Shown: positions 12,216-48,015, numbered from the stretch's first letter. The stretch is DNA of 48,901 bases from a virus (IMGVR_UViG_3300040801_000836:1-48901); one strand, 5' to 3'. Numbers and translations: made by a program. The notes: a model not told the origin generated them from the letters alone.

Positions 12216-12230
12216 AACTAACTGTTAGTT
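12216..12230. repeat. Palindrome copy, 1-nt spacer, intergenic
   Basis: TAACTAACTGTTAGTTA, followed by SD AAGGAG. Confidence 0.95.
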
Positions 12231-13700: not shown

Positions 13701-13710
13701 CAGGTTAGTT
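13695..13710. repeat. Palindrome copy, 2-nt spacer (AG), at the gene junction before terL
   Basis: TAACTAACAGGTTAGTTA. Contains the upstream TAA stop, and the AGGT centre lies 9 nt before the terL ATG. Confidence 0.95.
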
Positions 13711-15304: not shown

Positions 15305-15320
15305 AACTAACAGGTTAGTT
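15305..15320. repeat. Palindrome copy, 2-nt spacer (AG), immediately before an ATG
   Basis: AACTAACAGGTTAGTT-ATG. Confidence 0.95.
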
Positions 15321-18670: not shown

Positions 18671-19319
18671 TGGCACAGCAGCACCAGACGCAACGACTAC
18701 ACCCGATGCGACTGTAACTACACCGGACGCAACGACTAAACCCGATGCGACCACCACGGATGCAACTAACATGTTAGTTGGACTCCCTGAGAACCTTCGA
18801 AGTAACGAGAGACTAAAGGACGTAAAATCTTTGGAAGACTTGGCGAACCGATTGGTCAACGCTAAGTTCGCTCCAGAGATTCCTGCGCCTGATGGGTACA
18901 AGTTACCTGATGGGGTTCCTGTTGAGATAGGGCAATTTGCCCACAAGAACAACCTTAGTCAAGAGCAACTTGACAGTGTTCTGGTTGAGATGGCGAGGAT
19001 AAATGACACCAAAACAACTGGTAACCTAGCCGAATTAGCCGAAAAAGGACAGGCCAAATTGAAGGAGTGGGGTGATAACGCGCAAGAATATACAAAGCTT
19101 GCCGTCGATGCCGTTAACTACTTCGAAGAAGAAACCCCCGGCCTAAAACAGATGTTGAAAGAAACGGGATATGGAAATCACCCACAACTTCTTGAAGTCT
19201 TCCGCCAAGTAGGTGTGATGATCAAAGAGGGTGGGTTTGTCAAAGGTGAAAATTACACCCCTGCAAACAAAAAGACGCAGGCTGAACGCATGTTTCCTAC
19301 CCAAGCAAAAACAAATTAA
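18642..19319 (+). CDS. Scaffolding protein candidate (225 aa)
   Basis: Lies immediately upstream of the capsid gene. Has a T/P/D-rich N-terminus and a helical, charged remainder. Contains an in-frame palindrome (TNMLV). Confidence 0.6.
   Translation: MSDETTTTPDGTAAPDATTTPDATVTTPDATTKPDATTTDATNMLVGLPENLRSNERLKDVKSLEDLANRLVNAKFAPEIPAPDGYKLPDGVPVEIGQFAHKNNLSQEQLDSVLVEMARINDTKTTGNLAELAEKGQAKLKEWGDNAQEYTKLAVDAVNYFEEETPGLKQMLKETGYGNHPQLLEVFRQVGVMIKEGGFVKGENYTPANKKTQAERMFPTQAKTN
18764..18779. repeat. Palindrome copy, 2-nt spacer (AT), intragenic
   Basis: Read as TNMLV in the scaffold candidate, right after the T/P/D-rich N-terminus. Confidence 0.95.
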
Positions 19320-19347: not shown

Positions 19348-20373
19348 ATGGCATTTGCACCCATGACAGGGGCAGAATACCCCAACCTAGTTAACGTCGC
19401 AAAAAGTTATGATCCAGATGGATCTATCGCTGACGTTGCTGAACTCTTGTCTCAAAGCAACCCTATCATTCAGGATATTCCGGTAATTGAGGGCAACCTT
19501 CCTACTGGTCACCGTTCGACTATTCGTGCTGATCTTCCTTCCCCGACATGGCGTAAGCTGTATCAGGGTGTTAAGCCTACCAAGTCCAAAAAGATTCAAG
19601 TTGAGGACTCTATCGGTATGTTGGAAGATTATTCTGGTGTGGATAAAGACCTTGCTGATCTTAACGGCAACACCGCTGAGTTCCGTCTTTCTGAGGACAT
19701 GGCCCACATTGAGGGTATCTCTCAGACTATGGCTACAACTCTTTTTTATGGTGATACTTCTACTAATCCAGAGCGCTTCCTTGGTCTTGCTCCACGCTAT
19801 GACGTATTGTCTATCGCCGCCACTAAACCTACCGCGCAGTCCCGCTCTGCTCAGTTGAAAAACGTTATCAGTCTGTCCGGCACTGCCAACCTTACCTCTA
19901 TGTGGCTCGTTGTTTGGGGCAAGTCTACTGTATTCGGTATCTACCCGAAAGGCTCTAAGGCTGGTCTGCTTCACGAAGATCAAGGTGAAAGCCGCTTGAG
20001 CGATAATGACGGTGGCTGGTTCCAAGGGTATGTTTCCCATTACCAGTGGAAAATGGGAATGGTTGTCAAGGATTGGAGATGTGTTGTTCGTATATGTAAC
20101 ATCGACACTTCGAAGATTGAAGACGCTACCACTCAGACTAATCTTTACACAGCAATGATTCGCGCATTACACACATTGCCACAAGGTGCCGTAGGCAACA
20201 AGGTATTCTATGCTGGTGCTGCTGTATCCACCATGCTCGACCTCGCGGCTATCAACAAGTCCAATGCTGCCCTCGGTAGTAAAGAGGTATTCGGTCAGGA
20301 ACTTACTACTTTCCGTGGTGTTCCTATTCGTCAGTGTGATGCTATACTGGAAACCGAAACTCAAATCGTGTAA
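19348..20373 (+). CDS. Major capsid protein (341 aa)
   Basis: Supported by position, size and a strong SD context TCTTCAAGGAGA that it shares with the next gene. A terminator follows two genes downstream. Confidence 0.75.
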   Translation: MAFAPMTGAEYPNLVNVAKSYDPDGSIADVAELLSQSNPIIQDIPVIEGNLPTGHRSTIRADLPSPTWRKLYQGVKPTKSKKIQVEDSIGMLEDYSGVDKDLADLNGNTAEFRLSEDMAHIEGISQTMATTLFYGDTSTNPERFLGLAPRYDVLSIAATKPTAQSRSAQLKNVISLSGTANLTSMWLVVWGKSTVFGIYPKGSKAGLLHEDQGESRLSDNDGGWFQGYVSHYQWKMGMVVKDWRCVVRICNIDTSKIEDATTQTNLYTAMIRALHTLPQGAVGNKVFYAGAAVSTMLDLAAINKSNAALGSKEVFGQELTTFRGVPIRQCDAILETETQIV

Positions 20374-20386
20374 CTAACAGTTAGTT
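20372..20386. repeat. Palindrome copy, 1-nt spacer, intergenic
   Basis: TAACTAACAGTTAGTTAA. The capsid gene's TAA stop overlaps the left arm. Confidence 0.95.
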
Positions 20387-21922: not shown

Positions 21923-23758
21923 ATGGCGGTATCTCAAACAAAACACAATTTTACAGCGGGTGAAGTTTCCCCGCTTATTTTTGGGCGACAGGACTTCGAT
22001 AGGTTCAAGAACGGATGCCGCAAGATGAAAAACATGGTGTCTTTGATCCAAGGTCCAACCACAAGAAGATCCGGGTTTCAGTATATGGCCTCTCTTTCAG
22101 ATCTTGGACTTGATCCTGCTGATCCGAAAGTGAGGCTTGTTGAGTTCATATTCAATGAGATACAAGCTTATGTGCTTGTGTTCTTCAAACATACGGATGG
22201 AAGTATTAAGATGGTCGTTGCAGTAGATGATGGCCTTTTGGTGTTTCCAGACCCCGCACCTACTGAATGTCCTGCTGGTAGCGCTTGGTCGGTTACCCCC
22301 GGTGATGTGTTTATTCTCGACATGCCTACCGGGTGGGACATAGACAACTTTACATTCGCTCAGTCTGGCGATAATCTCTATTGTGCGCAAAGCACATTGA
22401 ATCCCCACGTAATAACAAGGCATGATTTTTACTGCTGGTCGGTAGATAGCTTGACATTTACTGACCAACCCTCTGATTGGAGTAACACCTATGGCTGGCC
22501 TGAGACTGTAACGTTCTTCCAACAGCGCCTTGTGTTCGGTGGTAACAAGCTACGTCGCCAGACTGTTTGGTGTTCTCGGTCTGGTGACTTCACTCATTTC
22601 GGGGAGCTTGATCCTGCTGCGTTAGTTGATGCTGATGCGGTATCTTTTACCCTTGATTCTGGCACACAGAATAAGATTCTCTGGATGCAGACTGTAAAGC
22701 AACTGCACATTGGTACTGTTGGTAATGAGTGGATAGTAACAGGGAATGGTCAGAACGCCATAACTCCATCTAGTGTTCTTACGCAGAGTCCAACCAACCA
22801 AGGCAGTCAGAAGATCCGGCCTCTTCGTGTTGGTCTTACTACTCTATTTATAGAGCAGCATGGTCGGGTAGTGAACGAATTTTCCTATGACTATAACTAT
22901 GACAGCTACAAGGCTTCTGATATAACGATACTCGCCCCGCACCTTACAGAGTATTATTCAATCGCTCGGTGGTGCTATCAGCAAACCCCTAACTCTATAG
23001 TGTGGTGTGTCCGTACCGATGGCGCACTTCTTGGTCTTACCTATCAGCGTCAGCACAATGTTGTCGCGTGGCATGTACATGATACAGATGGTGAGTTTAT
23101 TGATGTATGCTCTGTTCCCGGCCAGAATCGTGAAGATGATCTTTGGGTCATAGTAAAACGAGTTATTGAGGGTGAGGATAAATACTACCTTGAAAAGAAA
23201 GCTGAAGACTTCAAAGGAACCGAAGCCGTCGAAGGTAGGTTTCTTGATTCTTTTCTACAGTACGAAGGGGGAGAAGCGTTACTTATTGATGGCCTTGAAC
23301 ACCTTGAGGGTAAGGAAGTGTTCATCTTATCAGACGGATCTGTTCACCCCCCGCGCACCGTTGAAGACGGAAAGATTGTGCTACAAGATGTTGCAACTAA
23401 CGTGTTAGTTGGCCTCTATTACTATTCGGAGGTTAACCCGTTATTGACGGATGCTGGTACAGAGAGGACAGGAACTACCATTACCCGAATACAGAGGATA
23501 CTCGCACTTGCTCTTGAGCTTTATAGATCTCTTGGCTTCGAGGTTGGCACATACGATATTGATGGCGAGGAACAAGTCGAAGAGAAATCTTTCCGCGTAC
23601 CTTCAGACCTCACGAATACCGCACTCCCTTTGTTCACAGGGACGTACAAGGTCGATGGGTTCGAAGGAAGCAGTGACCATGCGGAGTATTTTATAAGGCA
23701 AAGGCAACCATTACCATTGACAGTCATTGGTGTGGTTAATAAACTGGAGGTAAAATAA
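21923..23758 (+). CDS. Tail nozzle / tail tubular protein B-like (611 aa)
   Basis: Synteny inference. Contains an in-frame palindrome (TNVLV). Confidence 0.45.
   Translation: MAVSQTKHNFTAGEVSPLIFGRQDFDRFKNGCRKMKNMVSLIQGPTTRRSGFQYMASLSDLGLDPADPKVRLVEFIFNEIQAYVLVFFKHTDGSIKMVVAVDDGLLVFPDPAPTECPAGSAWSVTPGDVFILDMPTGWDIDNFTFAQSGDNLYCAQSTLNPHVITRHDFYCWSVDSLTFTDQPSDWSNTYGWPETVTFFQQRLVFGGNKLRRQTVWCSRSGDFTHFGELDPAALVDADAVSFTLDSGTQNKILWMQTVKQLHIGTVGNEWIVTGNGQNAITPSSVLTQSPTNQGSQKIRPLRVGLTTLFIEQHGRVVNEFSYDYNYDSYKASDITILAPHLTEYYSIARWCYQQTPNSIVWCVRTDGALLGLTYQRQHNVVAWHVHDTDGEFIDVCSVPGQNREDDLWVIVKRVIEGEDKYYLEKKAEDFKGTEAVEGRFLDSFLQYEGGEALLIDGLEHLEGKEVFILSDGSVHPPRTVEDGKIVLQDVATNVLVGLYYYSEVNPLLTDAGTERTGTTITRIQRILALALELYRSLGFEVGTYDIDGEEQVEEKSFRVPSDLTNTALPLFTGTYKVDGFEGSSDHAEYFIRQRQPLPLTVIGVVNKLEVK
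23395..23410. repeat. Palindrome copy, 2-nt spacer (GT), intragenic
   Basis: Read as TNVLV in the 611-aa ORF. Confidence 0.95.
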
Positions 23759-24651: not shown

Positions 24652-26663
24652 AAACGACACAAGGACAACTCGCTTCAGGCAGCATAGCAACTGGCGACGC
24701 TGGAACTTTTGCACCAAAACAAGTTAGCACCCGAAGCCCCGGTGTTAACCCTGTGCGTATAAGGTCTAATTCTAAATTAAGATCTACTAATGTCGTCCCG
24801 CAGCCTATGAATTGGGAGGCACAAGAACGGGTGGCGGACTCTATCAACAGCGCAACTAACATGTTAGTTAACTCTGCTGTTAATTATCAGGACCGTGTTG
24901 ATCAACTTGAAGCTGACGAAGCCGTACTTGCCTATCGTAAAATGACCCGTGAAGCTTTCTATGGTAGAGAAGACGAAAACGGTAGACTTGTAGATGGGTA
25001 TGCCCTCACGAAGAATAAGCAGGCACTTGATTCTTACAGTTCATACAATGCCACTGTCGATAAATACGCCGAGGAAGTATTGGCTGGTAGATCCGATTCT
25101 GTAAAGGCTAAAATGCTTCTAAGTATAAAGAGGGAGAATGAGGCTGCGCGGGACAGGGGGATTAACCATAACTATAGCCAGTTAAAATCACATGAAGAGA
25201 ATATCAGAAGACAAGGAAACCTTGACCTGTTGGCAGATATTGAGAAGAATGGTACTTCCCCGTGGAGTAACGGTGCGGTACAGGCGCATCTTGCTAAAGT
25301 TAAAGATGTGGGCCAACGACAGGCCGACGAGGAATACCTAGCTAAGAACACGCTCTTTATGACCTACAACGATGCAAGAGAACTTTCCGCTGGTGATGTG
25401 TTCAACCACAACCCCGCTCAGTCTGCTTACGAGCAGGCTAAAAAAGCATTTGAAAAGATTCGTGGTACGTTATCTGAAGAAACAGAGAGCGCCCTACAGA
25501 ACTGGCTACAGGGTAAAGAGGAAGAAGCTAAACGTGACGATGCCGCACAAAGGACAGTCAATGCTAAGCGGGAGCTGAACGAACTAACCCGCATGGCACC
25601 TGACATATTCGCTGACAGTTTCAGGAACGACGGCAATCCAGCTATCCGCAATTCTCTCGTTGCTGACTTGAGGACGAAGATGGCTGCTGTTTCTGGTGCG
25701 CCTGGAAAGATAGTCGGAATGGTCAAGGATGGCATATCTAACTACGCCACTACTAACGGTGGGGTTACCCTAGCTAACAAGAGAGATGCTGCTATCAATG
25801 CGTACAATTCTATCGTGGAAGGTGGGGGAGACTTCACCACTACGGAACTCCTTGAGTTACGAACCTATGTTATGTCGGAGCTGCCAGCTAAGATCGAGAA
25901 GCAGATGGAGCAGGTAGATAACGTTCTTATAACACAGCGAGATAGGTTGATTGCTGAAGCACAGGCTAAAGGAACATTAAAGGATCTGAAGCTTGATGAC
26001 GTACCACCACCGGGGATGACTGAAAGTGGGTTGGAGAAATTCTATAAGCAAAGAACTGTTTTAGATAACGCCCGAAAAGGTACGTTGTCTAGGTGGAGTC
26101 CAGAAGAAGTACAGGGTCGATTAGATGTATACGATGCTAAGCTTATAACAATGACCATGACTGAATCTGACATAGACAACATACGTGAAGCAACCGTTGA
26201 TGGTCTACTCCCACCGGGAACCCTTGCCAAATATGAAGAAAAGTATATGAAGCAAAAGTCCTTGAATGGGAAGAAGATGCCTTGGCAAGCAGACCCACGC
26301 TACCAAGGTGCATTAGCCGGTGTACGAAATTCAAAGCAGCAGTTAACAGGATTACCATTACCGATAAAACCTTCTACCACAAAAGAGAGTAGGTTGCTTG
26401 AGTTTGAGAAAGAGAAGAGTGCTTTTGAAATGGCCGCTGAAAAAGCAATGGCTGATGCCATCATTGACCTTGAGAGCAAGGCTCTTGATGCCTACAAGAA
26501 AGGTGTGGACTTCGATGCAACTAAGTGGTGGGAGGATTACATAACTAATGTTGTTAACAAGGGATCAAAGGTTAAGTCAAGCTTCTGGTCACAGTTAAAA
26601 GGTCAATGGTCTTTCGACATTTTTGGTAATTCTCAAGATCTAAAAAGTGGAGTGATGGAATAA
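24648..26663 (+). CDS. Internal virion/ejection protein candidate (671 aa)
   Basis: Long, helical and charged, and coupled to both neighbours. Contains an in-frame palindrome (TNMLV). Confidence 0.45.
   Translation: MKTTQGQLASGSIATGDAGTFAPKQVSTRSPGVNPVRIRSNSKLRSTNVVPQPMNWEAQERVADSINSATNMLVNSAVNYQDRVDQLEADEAVLAYRKMTREAFYGREDENGRLVDGYALTKNKQALDSYSSYNATVDKYAEEVLAGRSDSVKAKMLLSIKRENEAARDRGINHNYSQLKSHEENIRRQGNLDLLADIEKNGTSPWSNGAVQAHLAKVKDVGQRQADEEYLAKNTLFMTYNDARELSAGDVFNHNPAQSAYEQAKKAFEKIRGTLSEETESALQNWLQGKEEEAKRDDAAQRTVNAKRELNELTRMAPDIFADSFRNDGNPAIRNSLVADLRTKMAAVSGAPGKIVGMVKDGISNYATTNGGVTLANKRDAAINAYNSIVEGGGDFTTTELLELRTYVMSELPAKIEKQMEQVDNVLITQRDRLIAEAQAKGTLKDLKLDDVPPPGMTESGLEKFYKQRTVLDNARKGTLSRWSPEEVQGRLDVYDAKLITMTMTESDIDNIREATVDGLLPPGTLAKYEEKYMKQKSLNGKKMPWQADPRYQGALAGVRNSKQQLTGLPLPIKPSTTKESRLLEFEKEKSAFEMAAEKAMADAIIDLESKALDAYKKGVDFDATKWWEDYITNVVNKGSKVKSSFWSQLKGQWSFDIFGNSQDLKSGVME
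24854..24869. repeat. Palindrome copy, 2-nt spacer (AT), intragenic
   Basis: Read as TNMLV in the 671-aa ORF. Confidence 0.95.
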
Positions 26664-29600
26664 TGGCTAAAGTAACGCAGGAAGAGTACGACAGGTCTTT
26701 GGCCGAGAGTCAACAACTCGTAGCTGACATAGAGAACATGCAAGCCAATAAACCTTGGCAGGCAGGTATAGTGGACGATGACACCGAATATCCTCTCTCG
26801 CAGGCGAACGAGCCACCAAAGGATAACCTACGCAAGAGCCTGTTAGCCCCTCTCACACCGATTGAAGGAGGGGCAACTAACAAGTTAGTTAAGACCCCTC
26901 AAGCTCAGTCGCTACGGAAAGATGCACCCCCCTTCTTCGATGAAGAGGGGCTTTCGCCGTTTAGCACTACGGAGCAGCAGGAGCAGGCACCCGCTACGAC
27001 AAGGCCGGATTTCACCCCAAGGTACGAAGGACCACCAATTGACCCACGCACTAACAGACCTTTCGGTGACGTACCGGAAGAAGAGATTCAGAAGGAGATG
27101 CTTGAAGCACTCTCAGCTAAGTTATCTGTTGGTAACTTCGACATGGACGATAAGTGGGCTAGGGTGTTGGCTAAGTCTGTACCGGAGATAGCACAGCATT
27201 ACCCTAATATCCTTGAGGTAATGAATGTCCATTATCAGTACATCAAAGAAGCTATGGAAGCACACAGGCTGATGTATGAGATAACTGGACCTGATGACGA
27301 GGAAGGTATCAAGAGAGCAGTTGAGGCGAGGGATAAGTCCATGCAGACCCGCCAGCAACTACCACTTGAGTACCCTATGAATGGGATCGTACACGAGACA
27401 TTGAGAGCAATGGCTGAAACAGGTGCGAGCTTCGTAGATATAGCCAAAGATGCTGGTCCCGGTGCTGCCGTTGTTGTTGGGATGGGTGCTGTGGCTGGTG
27501 GCCTTGCGGGTGGTCTTACTGGTGCTCCTGGTCAGGGTGCGCTGTGGGGTGCCAAGACTGCTATGAAGTTTGGTGTGCCAATCAAGATGTTTGAGTCAAT
27601 GCAACGACAGGGTACTGGTGAGTTCCTGCTTGATATGATGGCACCTATTGAGGAAGGACAAGAGCCGATACCTTACGCTATAGCTAGGCCGATAGCTGAG
27701 AAGTACGCCGTTCCCTATGCCATACTCGAAACAACAGGTAAGATTGCTGAAGTTATTGCAGGCTTTGGGTTTACTGCCACGATATCGAAACGTGTTGTAG
27801 CACTCGCGGCTGAAGGTGGGACAGAGTGGGGACAGACCCTTATTCAACAGATAGGACTGTGGGCCGCTCAGAAGGAATTTGCAAGAGTCAAGAACTCTCC
27901 TTTCGATGTGAAGGTAGAGGACATACTTGATTACCATGAGGCTAAGCTTGCTGCGAGACTGGCTATTCTTGGTACGGGTGGTATCAGTATAGCTACTTCA
28001 CCTATCACAATACCGTTTGCCACTAAGCGTATGCTCACTGAGTACAATCGAAGGAAAACGTTTAATGAGATTAGGCGTGACCTCAAGAGATTGGAGGACT
28101 ACAATAAAAAGATCCTTGACGACAACAAAGATAAGCCTATCGACGATGTTACTGACGAGGCAACTAACACGTTAGTTACGGGTGAACCGATAGATCCTGC
28201 GGAGATTGGTGACGTTGCTAATGAGCCTATCCTTGCAGGCACCGACATAACAGATGATAAGATTGATGATCTCGTTGTTACTGATGATGCTGACTTGGAT
28301 GATGCCCTTGATGCCATAGATAGCGGTATTGAAGATTCCTACGATGACGTAACCGCCGCTTTCTTCACTGGTATGCGTGAGCATTTCAAGGATGAAGAAC
28401 ATGTGGGCATGGTCGAGGGGTTGATTACTGCCAGAGCGCAGGCGGAAGGGATGAGCCTTTCTCAGTACATGGAGAAGCGTGGCCTCACCTTTGAGAAAAT
28501 CAATACCGATGCTGATATGGTGGGTGCATACACCTATTTCAGTGAAGAGGGTAACACCATTATTACGGCTTTCAATAACGCTAACATCGTTGACGTTATA
28601 TCGGAGCTTGGTCATGTGTTCAGGATGGACCTTGACGAGAAGCAACAGGCCATAATGGATAAGTTCGTTGGTGTGGATATCGGATCAGAGTGGGACGGTG
28701 CAGCAAACGAGACATTCTCCCAAGGTTGGGAGCAGTACCTAGCCACAGGTGAAGCACCTTCGCATGAGCTTAAAGGTCTATTTCAAAAGCTGAACTCTTG
28801 GATAACCAAGATTTACAAGACTATCCGCAAGATGGATGTTCCTAATTTGGATATCCCGCCCGAGATGATGGAGGTGTATGATAGCTTACTCGTTAAGAAA
28901 ACTGTTGCAGACGGTAACGCCACCAGTGTTAATGATGCGAAAGCAGATAGCAAGCTCAATAAGCCAACTATCGAAGAACCACCAGAAGATATCACGACAA
29001 CAGATGATATCGAAGAACCCCCTGAAATTGGTGAAGATGACATCATCGACGAGACTCCTGAGCCTCCTACTATTGATGAAGAGGACATCGTCGAGACACC
29101 AAAGGAACCTAAGAAAAAGAAGATAGTCAAAAGGTTCAAGATCAACACTCGCGGTATATCGGGATTCGGCTCTACAACACAGAGCGAAGCAGACTACACC
29201 CCAACAGGTATGCGTGGTGAAAGGGACATTTTCGACGATATAACAGGGGATGAAAATAGCGCGGCTGATGTTGCTCAGTGGTACATTGATAATGGCGATC
29301 AAGAGCAGCAGATAATAGCTAACCGCATAATCGGCCTGTTACGAGATATACCTTTCACAGTAGTAGAGCTAAATACGCACTATGACAACAACGTACCAAC
29401 TGACATGGAGAACGCTCTTGGGTTGTATGTCCCTGACGAGCAGACTCAAAGAGCCGCTGTTTTCGTTCGTGGTAAGTCGTGGGGTGATAGAGCAGCAAGC
29501 AACGAGACACCCTTACATGAGTTGGTACACGCTGCTACTTGTATGCGAATCTACGAGGCCCGTGATTTAATTGCACAGGGAGTAGATAACACTCTTACTC

Positions 29601-32600
29601 GCAACTACATTGCCCTTGAAACATTCAGGGATCAGTTGTCTGCACTGGTGAAGTCACAGTATCAAGCAGGCGCACAGACAGGCAATCATACGATAAGTAT
29701 GGATATGCCCATATCTGGCTTTAAGAAGGATACCGAACTCATAGCCTATGGTATGACCAGTAGGAGTTTTCAAGAGTGGTTGGCTACTGTTAACATGCGT
29801 ATGATAGACGCACACGGAATGTCTAAGCCTGTTAGGGCTATAACTAAATTCGTTCGTGTCATTCGTGCTTTACTAGGTATCCCTGCAAGTGAGGAAACCG
29901 CTCTTATTCGCGTAATGCAGTTCGGTGAGATATTCATGCGAACACAGAAAGAGCATACCGCCAAACAAAAGGCCGCTTCTACTGCTAGTGGTATAAAGAA
30001 GACGGATCAAGTAGAGTGGGAAGGAGAGGCAACTAACACGTTAGTTGAAGCTGAGAAAGCGGAGAAGGCACGTAAGGAGCCAACGGCTGATGCACTTGTT
30101 GAACGTATAAAGAAAGAGCGTGAAGCAAGAGAACGCGCAATGGCCGCTTACGATGCAGCTATAGCCAGTAAGATCAAAGCAGGCACGACTGCCAAGGTTG
30201 CCGCTAGGATACAGCAGAAAGCTATGGTCCGGGCAATGAAGGCGTTGTTCGACGCTGGTGACCTACACGGTTACCGAGTTGCTAGGGACCACTTCAAGGC
30301 CATTCTTGCAAGGGAGAGAGCAAAGGCTGCGGCTGTAGCTAAGCACAAAGCCCTTCGTAAGAGTATAATGACGAAGCTCGAAAAGGGTATGCCAAGTAAG
30401 ATACACGGCAAGCTTTACGTGAAGATCAGTCCAGAGATGTCCAAGTTGTTCCGTGACGTACTGAAGGTTCTTCACCCATTGAAAACCAATAAGCAGATAC
30501 GAGAACTTTATGATATCAGAATGGGAGGACAATTCGACGCGTATGCAATGGCTAAAACGGACGCTGATTATATTATTAATACTTTTCTCGATGGGGCTGT
30601 TTCACGTAACGCATCAGGTGTCAGAATTTTGGAGAACCTTAACGAAGCGTTAGCCCTGCTACTCTCCGGTGAATCTCAGCTTTCTCCGATGATGAAGAAG
30701 AAGGCCGAGATAGACAGGATGCGTCCTGAGATAATTAACAGTATTAATGGTGGTAACGTTGTCGATTCACCACTTACGGATACTAAGCTCTTGCACGAAC
30801 AACGTAAGAAGCAGAAGACGCGGCGTGAGTATTGGGCTACGTGGACTGTAGGACACAAGAATGTCTTTGGTCTTACGGGATTGATAAAGCTTGCCACAAG
30901 CTACACCCCCGGTTCTCAGTCTGCACTGTCTAAGATGTGTAACTTCTTCGAAGCGAAACAGCGGAAGATGACTCGTATCCGCGAGGAACAGGCGAAGATA
31001 ATGGAGATGTATATCCGTTCATTTGGTCTGGATAATAAGAAGACTAAGTATGCCCTATTCAAGAAGTGGGCTGAAGACACAAAACCTGTTCACCGTATTG
31101 CTGGTGTTGATATGGGCAAAGCACAAGTGCGTCAGATATGGATGTACATGCAAGACCCAACGCTAACTAACAGGTTAGTTATGCAGTTTATGGACCCTAA
31201 AGATAGGGCTAAAGTAAAGAAAGATCTTACGGATGAAGAGATTGATGAGATAGAAGCCGCCGCCTTAGAGAACTACGATAACATTGTTAACCAAGTTAAC
31301 GAGATTCTGACCGACGAAGACAAGGCTTTTGCTCAATTGCTCATGGGATATTTCAATAGCGATGAGCAGTACGAATATGTTAATCGTGTACATAAGATTG
31401 TTGCAGGACTTGAGCTAGGCAGGATAGAGGGCTACGTTCCTATCCGTGCAGAGAACTACCTCAACATAACTGAGCAGTTGGACAGAGGGCATGAAGCATC
31501 ACAGTTCAAACATGATGACTATATCAGGAAAACCCCTCAATCAGCTAAGAGTATACGTGAACGAGCCAAGAACGCTGACAGGTTCCAGATGCGATTCGAT
31601 GGAGACATAACGCTATTCAATTCTTACACCGAAGAGATGGCACACTATGTGAACTTTGCGGAACAGGCTCAGCTTGTTAAGATTGCGATTGAGGATAAGG
31701 ATATCCGTAGGGCTATTGAAGTAGAATATGGCAGGGACGTGTACAATTCTATAGTTAGCGCCGTTGAAGATGTGCTTGCAGATGGTATACATAACCAGAA
31801 GCAGTACCCTCTAATGGATAAGTTTAGGGCTACATTTGTTCGTTCAACAATTGGAATGGCTACCAGTGTATTCTTAAAACAGCACATTTCTATAGTGCAG
31901 TATGCTCAACATATGCCTGTTTTAGATTTTACAAAGGGCATGGCCGTGTTTTGGAAAAATCCTATTGACAATTTCTCTGAAATGATGGATACTGATTTCA
32001 TCAAAAACAGAAAGAACTCAATGGACAGGGACATGAAACAGACTGCTACCTCTGCTGAGTATAAGCGGTGGCGATTGAATCCAACACTGTCTAATCTTAT
32101 AACTCTTAACGTCACTCTTGGCGATTCAAGTGCCATCATCCAAGGTGCATGGGTATACAAAGAGTATCTGAAGACACAAACCAACCCTGCAACGGGGAAG
32201 AAGTATACCAACAAGGAAGCACTGGCCGAAGCTTTCAATAAGTCTAATGCTACACAACAGTCCGGTGACATGCAGGAGTTGTCATGGACTCAGCGCGGTG
32301 GCTCTGCAATGCAGTTAATGACCATGTACTCCACTGGTCCTATACAGGCGCTACGGCAGGAGATCGAAGCAGTGAGAGACTACGCGGCGGGCAATATAAG
32401 CAAGGCGCAGTTGCTCAAGACCCTTGCTATCTACCACGTAATCGTACCTTCAATGTTCGCTATGGTGTCTGGACTTATGACCGGAAGGGAAGAGGATGAT
32501 TGGTTGAAGGCTCAGCTATTAGCGGCGGCACTTGGTCCTTTCAGCGCAATCTACGGAGTTGGTGAAGTTATCAGTAATGTCACAAGTGGGCTGCTTGGGA

Positions 32601-32836
32601 TGAGGGTGTATCCGGCTGAAGGGTTACTTTCCGATGCCATATACGGCACATATAAGTTCCTCAAAGATTGGACAACAGGCGAAGATCTATCTATTGAGGA
32701 TTGGTCTAAACTGTTCCAATCGATAATGATGTTCACGGGGCATGGAGTACCGACAACTAGAATTACCCGCGTAGGTGAGAACCTTGCTGAAGGTAACGTA
32801 ACAGGAGCGCTCTTGCAACAACGAGTTGAAGAGTAA
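26663..32836 (+). CDS. Giant virion protein (2057 aa) with an HExxH zincin motif, Gly-rich and C-terminal hydrophobic segments
   Basis: Single open frame in the track. PLHELVHAATCMRIY (HExxH), a GxxxG-rich segment GMGAVAGGLAGGLTGAPG, and acidic IEEPPE repeats. It holds four in-frame palindrome copies. The stop abuts palindrome 32835..32849. Confidence 0.8.
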   Translation: MAKVTQEEYDRSLAESQQLVADIENMQANKPWQAGIVDDDTEYPLSQANEPPKDNLRKSLLAPLTPIEGGATNKLVKTPQAQSLRKDAPPFFDEEGLSPFSTTEQQEQAPATTRPDFTPRYEGPPIDPRTNRPFGDVPEEEIQKEMLEALSAKLSVGNFDMDDKWARVLAKSVPEIAQHYPNILEVMNVHYQYIKEAMEAHRLMYEITGPDDEEGIKRAVEARDKSMQTRQQLPLEYPMNGIVHETLRAMAETGASFVDIAKDAGPGAAVVVGMGAVAGGLAGGLTGAPGQGALWGAKTAMKFGVPIKMFESMQRQGTGEFLLDMMAPIEEGQEPIPYAIARPIAEKYAVPYAILETTGKIAEVIAGFGFTATISKRVVALAAEGGTEWGQTLIQQIGLWAAQKEFARVKNSPFDVKVEDILDYHEAKLAARLAILGTGGISIATSPITIPFATKRMLTEYNRRKTFNEIRRDLKRLEDYNKKILDDNKDKPIDDVTDEATNTLVTGEPIDPAEIGDVANEPILAGTDITDDKIDDLVVTDDADLDDALDAIDSGIEDSYDDVTAAFFTGMREHFKDEEHVGMVEGLITARAQAEGMSLSQYMEKRGLTFEKINTDADMVGAYTYFSEEGNTIITAFNNANIVDVISELGHVFRMDLDEKQQAIMDKFVGVDIGSEWDGAANETFSQGWEQYLATGEAPSHELKGLFQKLNSWITKIYKTIRKMDVPNLDIPPEMMEVYDSLLVKKTVADGNATSVNDAKADSKLNKPTIEEPPEDITTTDDIEEPPEIGEDDIIDETPEPPTIDEEDIVETPKEPKKKKIVKRFKINTRGISGFGSTTQSEADYTPTGMRGERDIFDDITGDENSAADVAQWYIDNGDQEQQIIANRIIGLLRDIPFTVVELNTHYDNNVPTDMENALGLYVPDEQTQRAAVFVRGKSWGDRAASNETPLHELVHAATCMRIYEARDLIAQGVDNTLTRNYIALETFRDQLSALVKSQYQAGAQTGNHTISMDMPISGFKKDTELIAYGMTSRSFQEWLATVNMRMIDAHGMSKPVRAITKFVRVIRALLGIPASEETALIRVMQFGEIFMRTQKEHTAKQKAASTASGIKKTDQVEWEGEATNTLVEAEKAEKARKEPTADALVERIKKEREARERAMAAYDAAIASKIKAGTTAKVAARIQQKAMVRAMKALFDAGDLHGYRVARDHFKAILARERAKAAAVAKHKALRKSIMTKLEKGMPSKIHGKLYVKISPEMSKLFRDVLKVLHPLKTNKQIRELYDIRMGGQFDAYAMAKTDADYIINTFLDGAVSRNASGVRILENLNEALALLLSGESQLSPMMKKKAEIDRMRPEIINSINGGNVVDSPLTDTKLLHEQRKKQKTRREYWATWTVGHKNVFGLTGLIKLATSYTPGSQSALSKMCNFFEAKQRKMTRIREEQAKIMEMYIRSFGLDNKKTKYALFKKWAEDTKPVHRIAGVDMGKAQVRQIWMYMQDPTLTNRLVMQFMDPKDRAKVKKDLTDEEIDEIEAAALENYDNIVNQVNEILTDEDKAFAQLLMGYFNSDEQYEYVNRVHKIVAGLELGRIEGYVPIRAENYLNITEQLDRGHEASQFKHDDYIRKTPQSAKSIRERAKNADRFQMRFDGDITLFNSYTEEMAHYVNFAEQAQLVKIAIEDKDIRRAIEVEYGRDVYNSIVSAVEDVLADGIHNQKQYPLMDKFRATFVRSTIGMATSVFLKQHISIVQYAQHMPVLDFTKGMAVFWKNPIDNFSEMMDTDFIKNRKNSMDRDMKQTATSAEYKRWRLNPTLSNLITLNVTLGDSSAIIQGAWVYKEYLKTQTNPATGKKYTNKEALAEAFNKSNATQQSGDMQELSWTQRGGSAMQLMTMYSTGPIQALRQEIEAVRDYAAGNISKAQLLKTLAIYHVIVPSMFAMVSGLMTGREEDDWLKAQLLAAALGPFSAIYGVGEVISNVTSGLLGMRVYPAEGLLSDAIYGTYKFLKDWTTGEDLSIEDWSKLFQSIMMFTGHGVPTTRITRVGENLAEGNVTGALLQQRVEE
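26875..26890. repeat. Palindrome copy, 2-nt spacer (AA), intragenic
   Basis: Read as TNKLV in the giant ORF. Confidence 0.95.
28162..28177. repeat. Palindrome copy, 2-nt spacer (AC), intragenic
   Basis: Read as EATNTLV in the giant ORF. Confidence 0.95.
30031..30046. repeat. Palindrome copy, 2-nt spacer (AC), intragenic
   Basis: Read as EATNTLV in the giant ORF. Same 21-nt context as the copy at 28162. Confidence 0.95.
31165..31180. repeat. Palindrome copy, 2-nt spacer (AG), intragenic and followed by ATG
   Basis: AACTAACAGGTTAGTT-ATG, read as TNRLVM in the giant ORF. Confidence 0.95.
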
Positions 32837-32849
32837 CTAACAGTTAGTT
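32835..32849. repeat. Palindrome copy, 1-nt spacer, intergenic
   Basis: The giant ORF's TAA stop overlaps the left arm. SD AGGAG follows. Confidence 0.95.
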
Positions 32850-32865: not shown

Positions 32866-33981
32866 ATGACAGTTTCAGCACAGTCACCTGTTGTTACTAG
32901 GGTGTACACTGGTCCCGGCGACTACGATTTTGACTTCTTAGTTTATGATGTAGCGAACTTGGAGATGACAATCGTAGATACGTCTGGTGTTCCTCAAACA
33001 TTAACCGTAGCTAACTACTCAGCAGTTACCTTGTCTCCGAATCCCGGTGGCACCGTTACGATTACCGATGCTCTTGGTGTGTTGCCTTTAGGTACTCTGT
33101 ACATTCGTCGCACACTGGCGTACCAGCAGACTATCGATTGGATCAATAACGAAGCGTTCAACATGGAGTTGCTTGAACGTTCGCAAGATCAGATGGTTAT
33201 GATGCTACAGCAGATTGACAGTATTGTAAAGGATGCTATGCTGCTGAGTACGTGGCGGGGTACTTGGGTTACACCTGTAACCTACAACGCCAAGGATCTT
33301 GTTGTTGCACCTAATGGTAACTGGTACGCCTGCTTAGAGACACACACTTCGGATGACTTCACTGCTGACTTAGCGGCGGGTTATTGGGTACTGGCTCTTG
33401 ATCTTGCAGCGGTAACTGCACTGAGGGACGAGTGCCTTGGCTACGCAGAAGACACAGCAGCCGACCTTGTACTGACAAATGCTGATGTGGTACTTACCCA
33501 CGCAGACGTTGTTCTCACTAATGCAGATGTGGTACTTACCCACGCTGATGTTGTCCAGACTGGTCTTGACCGCGCTGCTACTGCCGCTGATTTGGTGCTG
33601 ACTAATGAAGATGTCGTTACAACTCAAGGGCTTGTTGATTCGATTGACACACCAACTATTCTCCGTAAGGATGCAGACACAGGTGCCGCAATACTTCCAC
33701 CGGGAACAACAGCACAACGTCCTTCTGTACCATCTGAAGGTATGCTCAGGTACAACACAGATCTGAAATCTTTTGAGGGTTACGCCGATGGGGTGTGGGG
33801 TACTGTTGGTGGTGGTGCTTCCGGTGCAGTCCAGAACCCTGTATTCTACGAGAACGACACTAACGTAACTGGCGACTACACCATTACTACTGGCAAGAAC
33901 GCTGTGAGTGCAGGACCGATTGAGATAGACGATGACGTAACCGTGACTGTTCCTGATGGCTCAGTCTGGACAGTGGTGTAA
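32866..33981 (+). CDS. Tail fibre protein (371 aa)
   Basis: Heptad ADVVLT(N/H) repeats. C-terminal LPPGTTAQRPSVPSEGMLRYNTDLKSFEGY is a segment widespread in phage fibres (from memory). Confidence 0.75.
   Translation: MTVSAQSPVVTRVYTGPGDYDFDFLVYDVANLEMTIVDTSGVPQTLTVANYSAVTLSPNPGGTVTITDALGVLPLGTLYIRRTLAYQQTIDWINNEAFNMELLERSQDQMVMMLQQIDSIVKDAMLLSTWRGTWVTPVTYNAKDLVVAPNGNWYACLETHTSDDFTADLAAGYWVLALDLAAVTALRDECLGYAEDTAADLVLTNADVVLTHADVVLTNADVVLTHADVVQTGLDRAATAADLVLTNEDVVTTQGLVDSIDTPTILRKDADTGAAILPPGTTAQRPSVPSEGMLRYNTDLKSFEGYADGVWGTVGGGASGAVQNPVFYENDTNVTGDYTITTGKNAVSAGPIEIDDDVTVTVPDGSVWTVV
33478..33561 (+). repeat. 4 x 21-nt tandem coding repeat (NADVVLT/HADVVLT), i.e. 2 x 42 nt
   Basis: Units at 33478..33498, 33499..33519, 33520..33540 and 33541..33561, read directly. 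Confidence 0.85.
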
Positions 33982-33994
33982 CTAACAGTTAGTT
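33980..33994. repeat. Palindrome copy, 1-nt spacer, intergenic
   Basis: TAACTAACAGTTAGTTAAGGAG. Confidence 0.95.
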
Positions 33995-35522: not shown

Positions 35523-36349
35523 TGAGCATCATTAAAGCAGGAAAGGTTCAAGCAGGTATCTCTTTGACTCCTGCTAATAACTTCATACTGGATGCCAGTG
35601 CGGATGATGGTACGGTAATCCTGAAGAGGGCGGATGGTACTGAGGTACTTAGTGTTGATGCAAGTGGTAATCTAATAGGGAAGGGTGTGAACCCTGTTGA
35701 TCAGACATCTAATAGACTATTGGAGTTTGGTGACTTTGGAGTGGGTTATGGTATCCCGAAATCTGGTGTAAGTTTAGATACGTTAACGATACCGGGAGTA
35801 TACACAATAGATGCAACTTGTACTAATAGACCTCCAGAAGCGCATTCTGAAGTGACGCTTCCTTTGTATGTCCATTCGAATAATGATCGTGTTATACAGA
35901 TGGCCTACCAAGGTCATAGTGAGATAGTCTCGTGGATTCGTATATACAATACAGTAAATTGGGGGAGTTGGCGTAGGGTTTTCAATCAAGGTTCTATACT
36001 CGGCGCAGTCAGTCAATCAGAAGGAGTTCCTACGGGTGCAATCATTGAGGCTGGTAGTAATGAGAAGGGGGAGTATACGAAGTTTGCTGATGGTACTTTG
36101 GTTATGATTAGTCCAACTACAGTCATCGACCTTACCGACACAAGTGTTAAGGCAGTCCCCCTTTATCCGGCCACTTTCGTCGGGACCAGACCAGCAACAT
36201 CGGTATCTTCTGGGACTTATGATGGTAAGATAAACCAATTAGCTAATGTCGGTGTTGGGAGTGGGTCCGGTGGATGGACATACCACGTCGCTGTAGCTGG
36301 GCTGGGCGAAACATCTGTAAGGTTTTTAGCAATAGGAAGGTGGTTCTAA
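35522..36349 (+). CDS. Receptor-binding/tail fibre paralogue 3 (275 aa)
   Basis: TAATG overlap with SD GGGAGG. ILGAVSQSEGVPTGAIIEAGSNEKGEYTKFADGTL and ...AIGRWF. Confidence 0.75.
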   Translation: MSIIKAGKVQAGISLTPANNFILDASADDGTVILKRADGTEVLSVDASGNLIGKGVNPVDQTSNRLLEFGDFGVGYGIPKSGVSLDTLTIPGVYTIDATCTNRPPEAHSEVTLPLYVHSNNDRVIQMAYQGHSEIVSWIRIYNTVNWGSWRRVFNQGSILGAVSQSEGVPTGAIIEAGSNEKGEYTKFADGTLVMISPTTVIDLTDTSVKAVPLYPATFVGTRPATSVSSGTYDGKINQLANVGVGSGSGGWTYHVAVAGLGETSVRFLAIGRWF

Positions 36350-36362
36350 CTAACAGTTAGTT
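36348..36362. repeat. Palindrome copy, 1-nt spacer, intergenic
   Basis: The stop of paralogue 3 overlaps the left arm. Confidence 0.95.
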
Positions 36363-36723: not shown

Positions 36724-36975
36724 ATGAGCTGGATCAATGAGGCTAAGTTAGAGCGCAAGGCAGAAAGAGAAGCAAGGCTGGCAGAGCAGGCCGCTAAGCA
36801 GGAACGAAGGGCCGCTATTGAAGCCGCACAAGAGGCGGAAGGGCTTAAAGAACAAACTATTGAGCAGGCCACCACATACATAACCAATCAGATAGCTGGT
36901 GCTAATGATCTGGAACAACTGAAGACGCGGGTAACGCGGGTACTGACTAAGATGGTCCCGTACATTTTACAGTAA
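36724..36975 (+). CDS. Small coiled-coil protein (83 aa)
   Basis: Track ORF with SD AAGGAG and a charged helical sequence. Confidence 0.65.
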   Translation: MSWINEAKLERKAEREARLAEQAAKQERRAAIEAAQEAEGLKEQTIEQATTYITNQIAGANDLEQLKTRVTRVLTKMVPYILQ

Positions 36976-36988
36976 CTAACAGTTAGTT
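36974..36988. repeat. Palindrome copy, 1-nt spacer, intergenic
   Basis: TAACTAACAGTTAGTTAAAGGA. Confidence 0.95.
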
Positions 36989-37862: not shown

Positions 37863-37870
37863 CTTCAACA

Positions 37871-37910
37871 ATGGCGCACTAACTAACTGTTAGTTGCGCC
37901 ATTCTTTTTA
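37871..37910. terminator. Bidirectional terminator built around a palindrome copy
   Basis: ATGGCGC-(act)-AACTAAC-T-GTTAGTT-GCGCCAT is followed by TCTTTTTA. It lies between convergent genes (endolysin stop at 37862, minus-strand gene stop at 37908). Confidence 0.6.
37881..37895. repeat. Palindrome copy, 1-nt spacer, core of the bidirectional terminator
   Basis: Flanked by the ATGGCGC / GCGCCAT arms. Confidence 0.95.
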
Positions 37911-38687: not shown

Positions 38688-38702
38688 AACTAACGGTTAG
38701 TT
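38688..38702. repeat. Palindrome copy, 1-nt spacer (G), intergenic
   Basis: TAACTAACGGTTAGTTA, adjacent to SD AAGGAGG on the minus strand. Confidence 0.95.
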
Positions 38703-39162: not shown

Positions 39163-39178
39163 AACTAACATGTTAGTT
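39163..39178. repeat. Palindrome copy, 2-nt spacer (AT), intergenic
   Basis: Overlaps the stop of 39177..39515. Confidence 0.95.
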
Positions 39179-40184: not shown

Positions 40185-40199
40185 AACTAACAGTTAGTT
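40185..40199. repeat. Palindrome copy, 1-nt spacer, intergenic
   Basis: Overlaps the stop of 40198..40434. SD GGGAGG follows on the minus strand. Confidence 0.95.
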
Positions 40200-42431: not shown

Positions 42432-42446
42432 AACTAACTGTTAGTT
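42432..42446. repeat. Palindrome copy, 1-nt spacer, intergenic
   Basis: The upstream stop is the TAA inside the arm. SD AAGGAG abuts the other arm. Confidence 0.95.
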
Positions 42447-42827: not shown

Positions 42828-42842
42828 AACTAACTGTTAGTT
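42828..42842. repeat. Palindrome copy, 1-nt spacer, intergenic
   Basis: The DNA polymerase stop overlaps an arm. SD AAAGGAG abuts the other arm. Confidence 0.95.
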
Positions 42843-44838: not shown

Positions 44839-44853
44839 AACTAACTGTTAGTT
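44839..44853. repeat. Palindrome copy, 1-nt spacer, intergenic
   Basis: Lies just upstream of the polymerase SD AAGGA. Confidence 0.95.
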
Positions 44854-46177: not shown

Positions 46178-46192
46178 AACTAACAGTTAGTT
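46178..46192. repeat. Palindrome copy, 1-nt spacer, intergenic, with an extra half-site
   Basis: GTTAGT-AACTAACAGTTAGTTA. Overlaps the nuclease stop. Confidence 0.95.
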
Positions 46193-47534: not shown

Positions 47535-47550
47535 AACTAACCTGTTAGTT
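47535..47550. repeat. Palindrome copy, 2-nt spacer (AG on the minus strand), immediately before an ATG
   Basis: The minus strand reads AACTAACAGGTTAGTT-ATG (nuclease start at 47534). Confidence 0.95.
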
Positions 47551-48000: not shown

Positions 48001-48015
48001 AACTAACAGTTAGTT
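48001..48015. repeat. Palindrome copy, 1-nt spacer, intergenic
   Basis: GTAACTAACAGTTAGTTAC, between the HTH gene and the next gene. Confidence 0.95.

Follow-up and report, generated by a model that had tools for sequence, protein, structure and literature searches.

A palindrome followed by an in-frame ATG within a giant phage virion gene as a probable member of a clade-specific palindrome array

Background

Does a short palindrome that directly precedes an ATG in the middle of a very long phage gene mark a second translation start? The question is raised by a viral DNA of 48,901 nt (IMGVR_UViG_3300040801_000836:1-48901; hereafter the window, that is, the whole stretch that was analyzed). 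Within its giant open reading frame (ORF), the 16-bp palindrome AACTAACAGGTTAGTT at 31165-31180 is followed by an in-frame ATG at 31181 (MQFMDPKDRAK), from which 551 codons remain to the stop at 32836. We confirmed this arrangement, on which the original prediction had built two proposals. Either the AGG at the palindrome center acts as a mini Shine-Dalgarno (SD) signal and 31181 is an internal start of a C-terminal product, or the site is the relic of a former gene start. Comparison with relatives suggests a different answer. The copy at 31165 is probably an intragenic member of a clade-specific array of identical palindromes, and 31181 probably does not serve as an internal start. As far as the sequences tell, it is an ordinary codon, neither a translation start nor a relic gene boundary, and there is thus no new gene product to annotate at this position.

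Position 31181 in relatives and homologs of the giant protein

By scanning IMG/VR for the palindrome we recovered two complete relatives, A (a contig of 45,510 bp with 27 copies) and B (47,487 bp with 29 copies), together with several fragments (approximately 63-72% nucleotide identity). A split of the giant ORF at the site had been suggested as a check on the relatives. We found instead that the ORF runs straight through in both A (1671 aa) and B (1672 aa). Starting from the palindrome center, the codons are AGG TTA GTT ATG CAG TTT in the window, AGG TTA GTT AAC ATG TTT in A and CGG TTA GTT AAT CAG TTT in B, with no ATG in B for at least nine codons. A homolog that lacks the palindrome (L176, 37% identical) has CGG CTA AAG AAC ATG GGC and reads L-T-K-R-L-K-N-M across the whole site. 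The residue aligned with Met1507 is Asn in A, B and L176, and Met1507 is specific to the window. Since the palindrome-less homolog has continuous coding sequence here, the palindrome appears to have arisen inside an existing coding motif. For the same reason the arginine at its center is likely ancestral, AG being one way to encode it; AGG is also the commonest Arg codon of the giant ORF. Base substitutions in a conserved stretch of the giant virion protein have thus probably produced the copy where it now stands, with the AGG as the ancestral Arg codon and the following ATG as a lineage-specific Met.

To extend the comparison beyond the clade, we ran a profile search of 1.84 billion representative proteins with the C-terminal module of the giant ORF. 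This returned 2489 homologs, nearly all of them located at the C-terminus of proteins of 1.4-5.7 thousand amino acids. Eight short or stand-alone homologs were retrieved and aligned, and in this alignment the site falls inside the motif [RK]-x-x-[WY]-M-x-x-Q-D-P-[ST]-L-x-x-x-[LF]. No homolog starts at the site. The stand-alone homologs P0007, P0045, P0052, P0091, P0106 and P0148 begin 28-100 residues upstream of it, and P0013, which starts 12 residues upstream, looks like a truncated call. A product initiated at Met1507 would lose the conserved W/Y-M-x-x-Q-D-P-S/T-L part of the motif.

We therefore regard an internal start at 31181, with the AGG as mini-SD and a 551-aa C-terminal product, as very improbable. 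Its attraction is that the ATG abuts an AG-centered copy exactly as at two real gene starts, that A also combines an AG center with an AAC ATG, and that the most widely conserved core of the module (from about profile positions 125-165 onward in distant matches) lies downstream of Met1507. Against it stand the CGG and the missing ATG of B, the restriction of the Met to the window, the conservation of AGG/CGG as Arg, and the loss of the conserved motif from the product. The sole candidate signal is a weak AGGU with a pairing energy of a mere -3.2 kcal/mol. Moreover, three other intragenic copies hold an in-frame ATG because their center is AT, and with Met at 3.8% of codons chance alone would place an ATG directly after one or more of the 11 intragenic copies with a probability of 0.35. 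Two observations nevertheless weigh against reading 31181 as an ordinary codon, namely the AG center plus ATG one codon later in A, and a clade-specific insertion of approximately 26 aa, common to the window, A and B, that starts right after the site.

That 31165/31181 is a relic gene start, at which two genes fused at a palindrome, seems less probable still. In its favor, copy 26875 in the same ORF corresponds to the junction between the gp15-like and giant genes in A and B. In addition, the homologous ORF of L176 occupies two overlapping frames (ORFs 2-1870 and 1867-3264). The L176 frame switch and the N-termini of the stand-alone homologs lie upstream of the site and not at it, however, and the continuous reading of L176 through the site indicates that the palindrome arose in a coding motif already present.

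Several features of the giant gene deserve mention in their own right. The clade-specific insertion occupies 31181-31260 (aa 1507-1533; MQFMDPKDRAKVKKDLTDEEIDEIEAAA...) and is absent from all more distant homologs of the C-terminal module. The frame switch of L176 (1747-1870, about 85-125 codons upstream of the site) may be a real gene split, a frameshift or a sequencing error. In A and B, the stop codon of the gp15-like gene (AAC-TAA) lies in the left arm of the ortholog of copy 26875 (L172 14764-14784), and the ATG of the giant gene, 5 nt upstream of that palindrome, reads through it. The giant ORF of the window has its start 70 codons upstream of that position, and GAAGGAGG stands just 5' of the palindrome; the arrangement at 26861-26890 may be a relic of the gp15-like/giant junction. 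Residues 756-1110 (28928-29992), 355 in all, are absent from A and B. They include a transglycosylase-like segment (aa 893-1087) that resembles those internal virion proteins of Ralstonia phages which carry a transglycosylase or endolysin domain, and the right edge of the insertion coincides with palindrome 30031. We also considered the split of the L174 giant protein (1172 + 573 aa) as a comparison. It is uninformative because BLASTP to the L173 and L174 giant proteins shows no detectable similarity to that of the window.

A family of 39 exact palindromes at even intervals

The sequence AACTAAC-NN-GTTAGTT occurs exactly 17 times in the window, as compared to 0 expected from shuffled sequences. 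Besides this form, which the original prediction described, there are 22 further exact copies with a 1-nt center, which bring the family to 39 (Table 1). Other center lengths are absent, including centers of 3-5 nt, and none of the 39 copies carries a mismatch in its arms. When two mismatches are allowed, the search gains just one near-copy, and isolated half-sites occur at chance level (6). Since near-copies are scarce and isolated half-sites are not enriched, the unit is the whole palindrome, in an all-or-none fashion.

Around the genome there is one copy per approximately 1.25 kb on average, and the copies are far more evenly spaced than randomly placed points would be. The coefficient of variation of the spacing is 0.51, whereas random placement gives 0.97 (P < 5e-5). 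No gap exceeds 3.0 kb, as compared to a mean largest gap of 5.3 kb under random placement (P = 0.003). The corresponding coefficients of variation are 0.52 in A and 0.60 in B.

The constraint extends one base beyond each arm. All 95 copies in the three complete genomes (window, A and B) have a pyrimidine at position -1 and a purine at position +1, so that the element consensus is Y-AACTAAC-N(1 or 2)-GTTAGTT-R. The two positions do not co-vary: C...A is found in approximately 21% of the copies, near the expectation for independence. This suggests that each 8-bp half-site is constrained on its own and that the flanks are not an eighth base pair.

The palindromes are closely fitted to gene boundaries. 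Twenty-eight copies lie at junctions or between genes and 11 are intragenic. All 22 copies of 15 bp fall between genes or in non-coding DNA of this genome; 13 of them contain the stop codon of the preceding gene in the left arm, wholly or in part, as (T)AA or AAC-TAA, and in 8 an AAGGAG-type SD starts 0-2 nt past the right arm. The 11 intragenic copies are all of 16 bp. Four reside in the giant ORF, two in a primase-like ORF and one each in a 608-aa ORFan and in the portal, scaffold-like, nozzle and gp15-like genes. They always occupy the sole open frame, xxA ACT AAC NNG TTA GTT, which encodes T-N-x-L-V. The form T-AACTAAC-N-GTTAGTT-A has stops in all three frames of both strands, whereas one frame stays open in the 16-bp form, and this accounts for the restriction of intragenic copies to the latter. 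Intragenic copies occupy stretches where overlapping genes leave no junction space, and copies are denser in a 1.4-kb non-coding control region.

Selection on the palindrome within the clade

Phages with capsids 36-65% identical to that of the window lack any recurrent palindrome, among them the relatives of 60-65% capsid identity in L117-L127 and L163, whereas a single fragment with a capsid 61% identical retains two copies. Within the clade it is strikingly conserved. Across 17 orthologous pairs of the window and B, the 14 arm bases agree at 100%, as opposed to 41% identity in the flanks of ±30 nt. In 6 of the 17 pairs, one member measures 15 bp and the other 16 bp. Compared with palindrome-less homologs, the intragenic copies in the portal, nozzle and gp15-like genes replace existing residues and add none. 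The nozzle protein thus changes from Y-T-H-V-V-V-G to A-T-N-V-L-V-G, and the portal from S-T-K-K-A-V to A-T-N-E-L-V, the portal copy being present only in the window and one fragment. Taken together, the invariant arms, the replaced residues and the lineage-limited portal copy indicate that the element is under strong selection as nucleic acid and that new copies are still arising. This selection holds 14 bases invariant while their flanks diverge and forces T-N-x-L-V into conserved structural proteins.

Palindromes also border segments that differ between genomes. A window-specific block of 3.6 kb between terS and terL (10075-13694) contains the 608-aa ORFan, for which neither a homolog nor a family match was found. 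It is bracketed by palindromes 10060 and 13695, and A and B have a single palindrome there. Similarly, palindrome-bounded cassettes of small ORFs differ in the same slot between the window (5933-6431) and B.

The AG center at gene starts

Exactly four copies carry AG as their center on the coding strand, at 13695, 15305 and 31165 on the plus strand and 47535 on the minus strand, as first reported. The same holds for the three adjoining gene starts: ATG 15321 and, on the minus strand, ATG 47534 abut their palindromes, the terminase large subunit (terL) ATG at 13715 follows at 4 nt, and none of the three has another SD within 30 nt. Although in-frame alternatives exist upstream (GTG 15282 for 15321 and ATG 47567 for 47534), the orthologs show that the two abutting ATGs are real starts. 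An ATG within 0-4 nt follows 4 of 4 AG centers and 1 of 13 other centers (one-sided Fisher test on the 17 16-bp copies, P = 5/2380 = 0.002, for a pattern chosen post hoc). The sole non-AG case, at 8728, opens only a 22-codon ORF.

These data leave somewhat less than an even chance that in this lineage AG provides a functional minimal SD (AGGU) for terL, the exonuclease gene and the gene that starts at 15321, a reading of the sequences that is compatible with our preferred explanation of the array. AGGU reaches the minimum SD length (at least 4 nt), and its distance from the ATG is 5 nt at 15321 and 47534 and 9 nt at terL. The closest fragment, L067, likewise has AG with an ATG at +0 in the 15321 ortholog, and is the only relative sharing this. 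The best anti-SD pairing at the three starts, CAGGTT, amounts to -3.2 kcal/mol, as compared to about -7 to -12 for most genes, which here carry AAGGAG-type SDs. Furthermore, the purine-rich core is not conserved at orthologous starts. The terL copy has center AC in A, GT in B and AC in L057, each with the ATG at +0. In L094 the terL copy is of 15 bp with center T and the ATG at +3, and the 15321 ortholog of the same fragment has a 15-bp copy with center G and the ATG at +0. The exonuclease copy has an AG center in A and B also, where it is followed by AGGGAGG-N7-ATG; these 14 nt are lost in the window. Since A and B have AG plus a separate strong SD, AG appears to predate the abutment at this gene. 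AG-centered copies also occur in the gp15-like gene of A and B, where they are followed by GAC/GAT and not by ATG.

The proposal of a built-in SD therefore retains a plausible, weak AGGU role at three starts and fails as a general property of the element. On the sequences compared, abutting starts do not depend on an AG center, and the element does not owe its existence to it. At the three true starts it may well act as a weak SD, which would be a local adaptation rather than the function of the palindrome. The further suggestion that the arms pair in the RNA and present the AGG in the loop is weakened by the hairpin itself, which reaches a mere -2.3 to -3.1 kcal/mol and is not part of the minimum free energy (MFE) fold at 13695 and 15305. 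A hairpin that bridges a distant SD to the ATG, in the style of T4 gene 38, was likewise rejected: a G-rich upstream tract is present only at 47535, the other sites being C/T-rich. The system also supplies a natural example of translation from ATGs that have practically no SD.

Two further observations concern the same starts. The 15321 gene has a leader of approximately 108 nt without a canonical SD, and the promoter-like site just past the terL stop, also kept in A (L172 ~2940-2975), precedes it; this gene is therefore likely to be the first cistron of the structural operon. Directly 5' of the terL palindrome there is a C/T-rich tract in three genomes (window 13673-13694, L172 1423-1439 and contig B), which in A includes an anti-SD-like CCTCC.

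What might read the array

Among the models that could account for the array, we rank a protein-binding array first, an RNA hairpin or processing signal second, and single-stranded DNA (ssDNA) priming or a recombination joint third. According to the first, the palindromes would be binding sites for a sequence-specific DNA-binding protein, probably phage-encoded, that reads two inverted 8-bp half-sites YAACTAAC along the whole genome. It might act as a global transcriptional roadblock, regulator or genome organizer, a role that has been shown for the stoperators of Cluster A mycobacteriophages and predicted for the palindromes of Cluster O. A reader of duplex half-sites is favored because the half-sites are constrained individually, the hairpin is marginal, centers of 3-5 nt are missing and copies are denser in the control region. 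The putative duplex-binding protein remains a tentative proposal, to which we give a little under even chances.

Several points weigh against it. The half-site spacing is either 1 or 2 bp and switches at orthologous sites, which is unusual for a rigid dimer; this variation favors a hairpin loop or a very flexible binder. Silencing of the stoperator type would lack a lysogeny context, because no integrase or repressor was found. Finally, the candidate binders conserved in three genomes (Table 1) give helix-turn-helix (HTH) or Zn-ribbon signals below threshold only. The AlphaFold model of the 92-aa Cro-like candidate has a predicted local distance difference test score (pLDDT) of 70, and its top Foldseek matches are HTH proteins of the YdaS/CI/EspR type, none of them significant (E > 0.8). 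The 392-aa candidate, kept in A and B without a family match, has a long Lys/Ala-rich low-complexity segment (AADKKAA repeats), like histone-H1-like DNA-binding tails. A 75-aa ORF at 38448-38675 on the minus strand matches one Myb/SANT-like repeat below threshold (Pfam E = 6e-4), and its SD is the strongest of the genome. We discarded it as the binder since it has no homolog in A or B, which use the same palindrome.

Other readings of the array as DNA sites were also rejected. The spacing of 1-2 kb would fit loading sites of the ParB/KorB type, but no ParB-like domain was found. A promoter for a phage RNA polymerase does not fit, as catalytic motifs of such a polymerase are absent from all frames of the window, and a one-armed -10-like promoter element conflicts with the requirement for both arms. 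The arms do match the attC core consensus at 6 of 7 positions each. attC sites, however, fold over 57 bp or more, contain L boxes besides their RYYYAAC...GTTRRRY cores, and act together with an integrase, while tyrosine recombinases need spacers of 6-8 bp. With an element of 15-16 bp, a spacer of 1-2 bp and no recombinase gene found, we rejected both an integron attC and a serine-recombinase crossover site.

The second model takes the palindrome as an RNA hairpin that serves as intercistronic punctuation, processing or insulating signal and is bound or cut at its 3' edge. Cutting would leave SD-proximal or leaderless 5' ends and thereby explain the SD-less ATGs that abut the element at exactly 0 nt in several genes and genomes. 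The register with upstream stops and downstream SDs in the 15-bp copies points the same way, as does the interchange of 1- and 2-nt centers at orthologous sites, which is what a loop would allow. One copy also forms the tip of a convergent terminator hairpin. On the other hand, the folding energy is very weak, two of the AG sites lie outside the MFE fold, and the 3-5 nt centers that would suit hairpins better never occur in the window. The Y/R constraint without co-variation and the higher density in the non-coding control region also speak against it, and cleavage of the 11 copies inside essential genes would be harmful. We consider this model unlikely. A stable hairpin or intrinsic terminator was rejected outright on the energy of the unassisted RNA hairpin and the lack of a U tract, and just copy 37881 lies inside a larger hairpin. 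The latter, AATGGCGC...GCGCCATT at 37870-37905, has -22.7 kcal/mol on both strands. With the T run behind it, it resembles a bidirectional terminator at the point where the plus- and minus-strand operons converge.

The third model, in which an ssDNA hairpin primes or loads an AEP-primase/SF3-helicase at Okazaki spacing, or in which the palindrome is a recombination joint for cassettes, is in our judgement less probable again. It would account for even spacing regardless of gene boundaries and for a site that is identical on both strands. The replication module with its 966-aa primase-helicase-like protein is conserved alongside the palindrome in the window, A and B, and the phage encodes an exonuclease and an ssDNA-annealing/binding protein. 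The copies that bound the 3.6-kb insert and the small-ORF cassettes would also fit a joint. Neither version requires the precise register with stop codons and SDs, however, and a recombination benefit alone fails to explain the strict purifying selection on intragenic copies. In addition, with 15-17 bp the site would be rather short for annealing-type recombination.

A broader possibility, which we regard as doubtful, is that the palindrome represents a new kind of genome-wide punctuation, a short RNA or ssDNA hairpin read by a dedicated phage factor. If this were true, the signal would define cistron ends in RNA and make SD-proximal or leaderless 5' ends, or in ssDNA would prime lagging-strand synthesis at Okazaki-size intervals. 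The phage would then have rewritten conserved portal, nozzle and ejection-protein coding sequence to install it every ~1-2 kb.

The genome and its other sequence features

The first 117 bp of the window are repeated at its end (1-117 = 48785-48901), and because of this direct terminal repeat we take the window to be a circular assembly of 48,784 bp. The phage is a novel epsilon15/BPP-1-like podophage with a circular genome of 48.8 kb. Besides terL, it encodes a T7-type head-tail connector, an epsilon15-type (GP7) major capsid protein, a nozzle protein and a 671-aa gp15-like protein. A replication module on the minus strand comprises a DUF2800 exonuclease, an Enc34/gp2.5-like ssDNA-binding protein, a family A DNA polymerase, an SNF2 helicase, a VRR-NUC nuclease and the 966-aa primase-helicase-like ORF that crosses the origin. 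Pfam gives no match for the latter.

Sequenced isolates are all distant. The portal is at most 33% identical to those of BPP-1- and epsilon15-like phages (tblastn), and megablast of the giant ORF against phage records returned nothing; an identical fragment is known from JGI sample 3300040781. In a search for the host or a prophage, the junction cassette gave one match only among genome contigs, to an unrelated sequence of Acidobacteria, and two metagenome scans returned nothing useful. A scan of approximately 50 ORFs with Pfam and PHROGs detected no integrase, repressor or ParAB. Rfam families and tRNAs were not found in the window.

The non-coding control region (7854-9580) contains the repeats AATGATATCACACACTTA (three times), CCATAACGCCCGCCTGCC (twice), CCCGACCAATCAG (twice) and ATGxGTGACATGT (four times), together with four palindromes. 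A strong sigma70-like promoter lies at 9488-9516, and the region probably serves as early promoter/operator and origin. A 34-nt inverted module composed of a palindrome arm and AGCGTAAGTAGTTGATATCATTAGACA occurs at 38696-38729 and 39136-39169 and flanks the ORF at 38778-39134. The regulatory region of A and B (L172 866; L109 8829) has a related module, which adjoins a palindrome beside a TTGACA.

Table 1. Palindrome copies, genes and candidate features in the window (empty cells: not given)
Feature	Coordinates	Strand	Details
Palindrome, 16 bp	694..709		inside 966-aa primase-helicase-like ORF
Palindrome, 16 bp, AT center	2038..2053		inside 966-aa primase-helicase-like ORF
Palindrome, 15 bp, junction	3497..3511		arm overlaps upstream stop codon
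Palindrome, 15 bp, junction	4695..4709		AAA ATPase / VWA genes
Palindrome, 16 bp, junction	5933..5948		upstream of AAA ATPase gene
Palindrome, 15 bp, junction	6356..6370		
Palindrome, 15 bp, intergenic	6417..6431		
Palindrome, 15 bp	8038..8052		non-coding control region
Palindrome, 15 bp	8275..8289		control region
Palindrome, 16 bp	8728..8743		control region; abutting ATG on minus strand
Palindrome, 15 bp	9027..9041		divergent control region
Palindrome, 15 bp	10060..10074		past terS; left border of window-specific 3.6-kb insert
Palindrome, 16 bp	11220..11235		inside 608-aa ORFan
Palindrome, 15 bp, junction	12216..12230		
Palindrome, 16 bp, AG center	13695..13710	+	TAA of upstream ORF (13437-13700) in left arm; terL ATG 13715
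Palindrome, 16 bp, AG center	15305..15320	+	abuts ATG 15321
Palindrome, 16 bp	17183..17198		inside portal gene (T-N-E-L-V); in L018, not in A or B
Palindrome, 16 bp	18764..18779		inside scaffold/protease-like gene; kept in all relatives
Palindrome, 15 bp, junction	20372..20386		overlaps capsid gene stop codon
Palindrome, 16 bp	23395..23410		inside nozzle gene
Palindrome, 16 bp	24854..24869		inside 671-aa gp15-like gene
Palindrome, 16 bp	26875..26890		giant ORF codons 71-76; orthologous copy is gene junction in A and B
Palindrome, 16 bp	28162..28177		inside giant ORF; kept in A and B
Palindrome, 16 bp	30031..30046		inside giant ORF; right edge of window-specific 355-aa insertion
Palindrome, 16 bp, AG center	31165..31180	+	giant ORF codons 1501-1506, L-T-N-R-L-V
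Palindrome, 15 bp, junction	32835..32849		overlaps giant ORF stop codon
Palindrome, 15 bp, junction	33980..33994		stop codon in arm, AAGGAG directly after
Palindrome, 15 bp, junction	36348..36362		
Palindrome, 15 bp, junction	36974..36988		
Palindrome, 15 bp	37881..37895		tip of long GC-rich hairpin where plus and minus operons converge
Palindrome, 15 bp, junction	38688..38702		upstream of 75-aa Myb-like ORF
Palindrome, 16 bp, junction	39163..39178		
Palindrome, 15 bp, junction	40185..40199		
Palindrome, 15 bp, junction	42432..42446		
Palindrome, 15 bp, junction	42828..42842		
Palindrome, 15 bp, junction	44839..44853		upstream of DNA polymerase gene
Palindrome, 15 bp, junction	46178..46192		
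Palindrome, 16 bp, AG center	47535..47550	-	abuts exonuclease (DUF2800) ATG 47534
Palindrome, 15 bp, junction	48001..48015		
Giant ORF	26663..32836	+	2057 aa; internal-virion/ejection-protein position; holds four palindromes, ends in a fifth
In-frame ATG (Met1507)	31181..31183	+	directly after palindrome; judged an ordinary internal Met codon
Terminase large subunit (terL)	13715-15169	+	
Promoter-like TTGACA-17-TAGGAT with TGn	15175-15205		just past terL stop; also kept in A
966-aa primase-helicase-like ORF	2409 through origin to 48296	-	hhhDxD and Walker A motifs by eye
Candidate binder, Cro/XRE-like, 92 aa	48021-48299		beside primase gene; conserved in three genomes; sub-threshold
Candidate binder, HTH_73-like, 78 aa	40198-40434		conserved in three genomes; sub-threshold
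Candidate binder, Zn-ribbon-like, 112 aa	39177-39515		conserved in three genomes; sub-threshold
Candidate binder, Lys/Ala-rich, 392 aa	6675-7853	-	conserved in three genomes; sub-threshold
Candidate binder, 173 aa	2496-3017		conserved in three genomes; sub-threshold

Comparison with known repeat systems

The array is a clean case of a rarely described phenomenon, in which short palindromes are kept identical and evenly spaced by the dozen throughout a phage clade. Among described systems, the nearest is that of Cluster O mycobacteriophages, which carry the 17-bp repeat 5'-TGTTCGGNNNCCGAACA as 34 invariant 7-3-7 palindromes, one third of them intragenic, with unknown function and a predicted dimeric DNA-binding protein (Cresawn et al. 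2015, PMC4351075). Both systems have more than 30 copies with invariant 7-bp inverted arms and a variable center, scattered between and within genes and in many cases intergenic or near gene 5' ends, in phages that are not obviously temperate. They differ in the arm (AACTAAC here, TGTTCGG in Cluster O), in the center (1 or 2 bp here, a fixed 3 bp in Cluster O), in the host and in the phage, an epsilon15/BPP-1-like podophage as opposed to an actinobacteriophage siphovirus. The copies described here are also evenly spaced, carry stops in their arms and are tightly tied to stop/SD junctions. On these sequence features we regard the array as an analog, and not a homolog, of the Cluster O repeat.

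For the idea of a mini-SD, the nearest parallel is the SAS/ESAS of Cluster K, a short conserved repeat 3-7 bp upstream of many starts. It is 13 bp long and contains AGGAG; a role in the initiation of translation or in protein or other binding at the site was proposed by Pope et al. (2011, PMC3203893). In both cases the repeat adjoins start codons and sometimes contains the upstream stop. The Cluster K repeat is asymmetric, has one orientation and a full AGGAG, and is found at non-structural genes only and essentially never inside genes. The element described here is instead a palindrome, provides no SD except through an AG center, and is intragenic in 11 of 39 copies.

Many highly conserved and dispersed copies are likewise typical of the stoperators of Cluster A (L5 gp71 sites), conserved repressor-binding sites that lie within and between genes. 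They are also typical of the conserved inverted repeats (CIRs) of phiC31, repressor-binding sites present in many copies across the phage genome. Both systems have approximately one copy per 2 kb. Unlike the present palindrome, stoperators are asymmetric and follow the direction of transcription; moreover, stoperators and CIRs alike belong to temperate phages with an identified repressor, whereas no repressor, integrase or partition system was found here; they are mechanistic analogs only. Outside phages, the half-site GTTAGTT-R fits exactly the plant MYB type II binding motif GKTWGTTR (PMC6054068), a likeness that is a lead only.

Compared with these known repeats, the palindrome array is new in its sequence, host range, variable center, even spacing and integration with stops and ribosome-binding sites. 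The function of the Cluster O repeat has been unknown since 2015, and the present array provides a second, unrelated system of this kind. It adds three handles, namely the 1- or 2-bp center, the Y/R flanks without co-variation and the integration with stops and SDs, which make the choice between duplex-binding protein and hairpin models directly testable.

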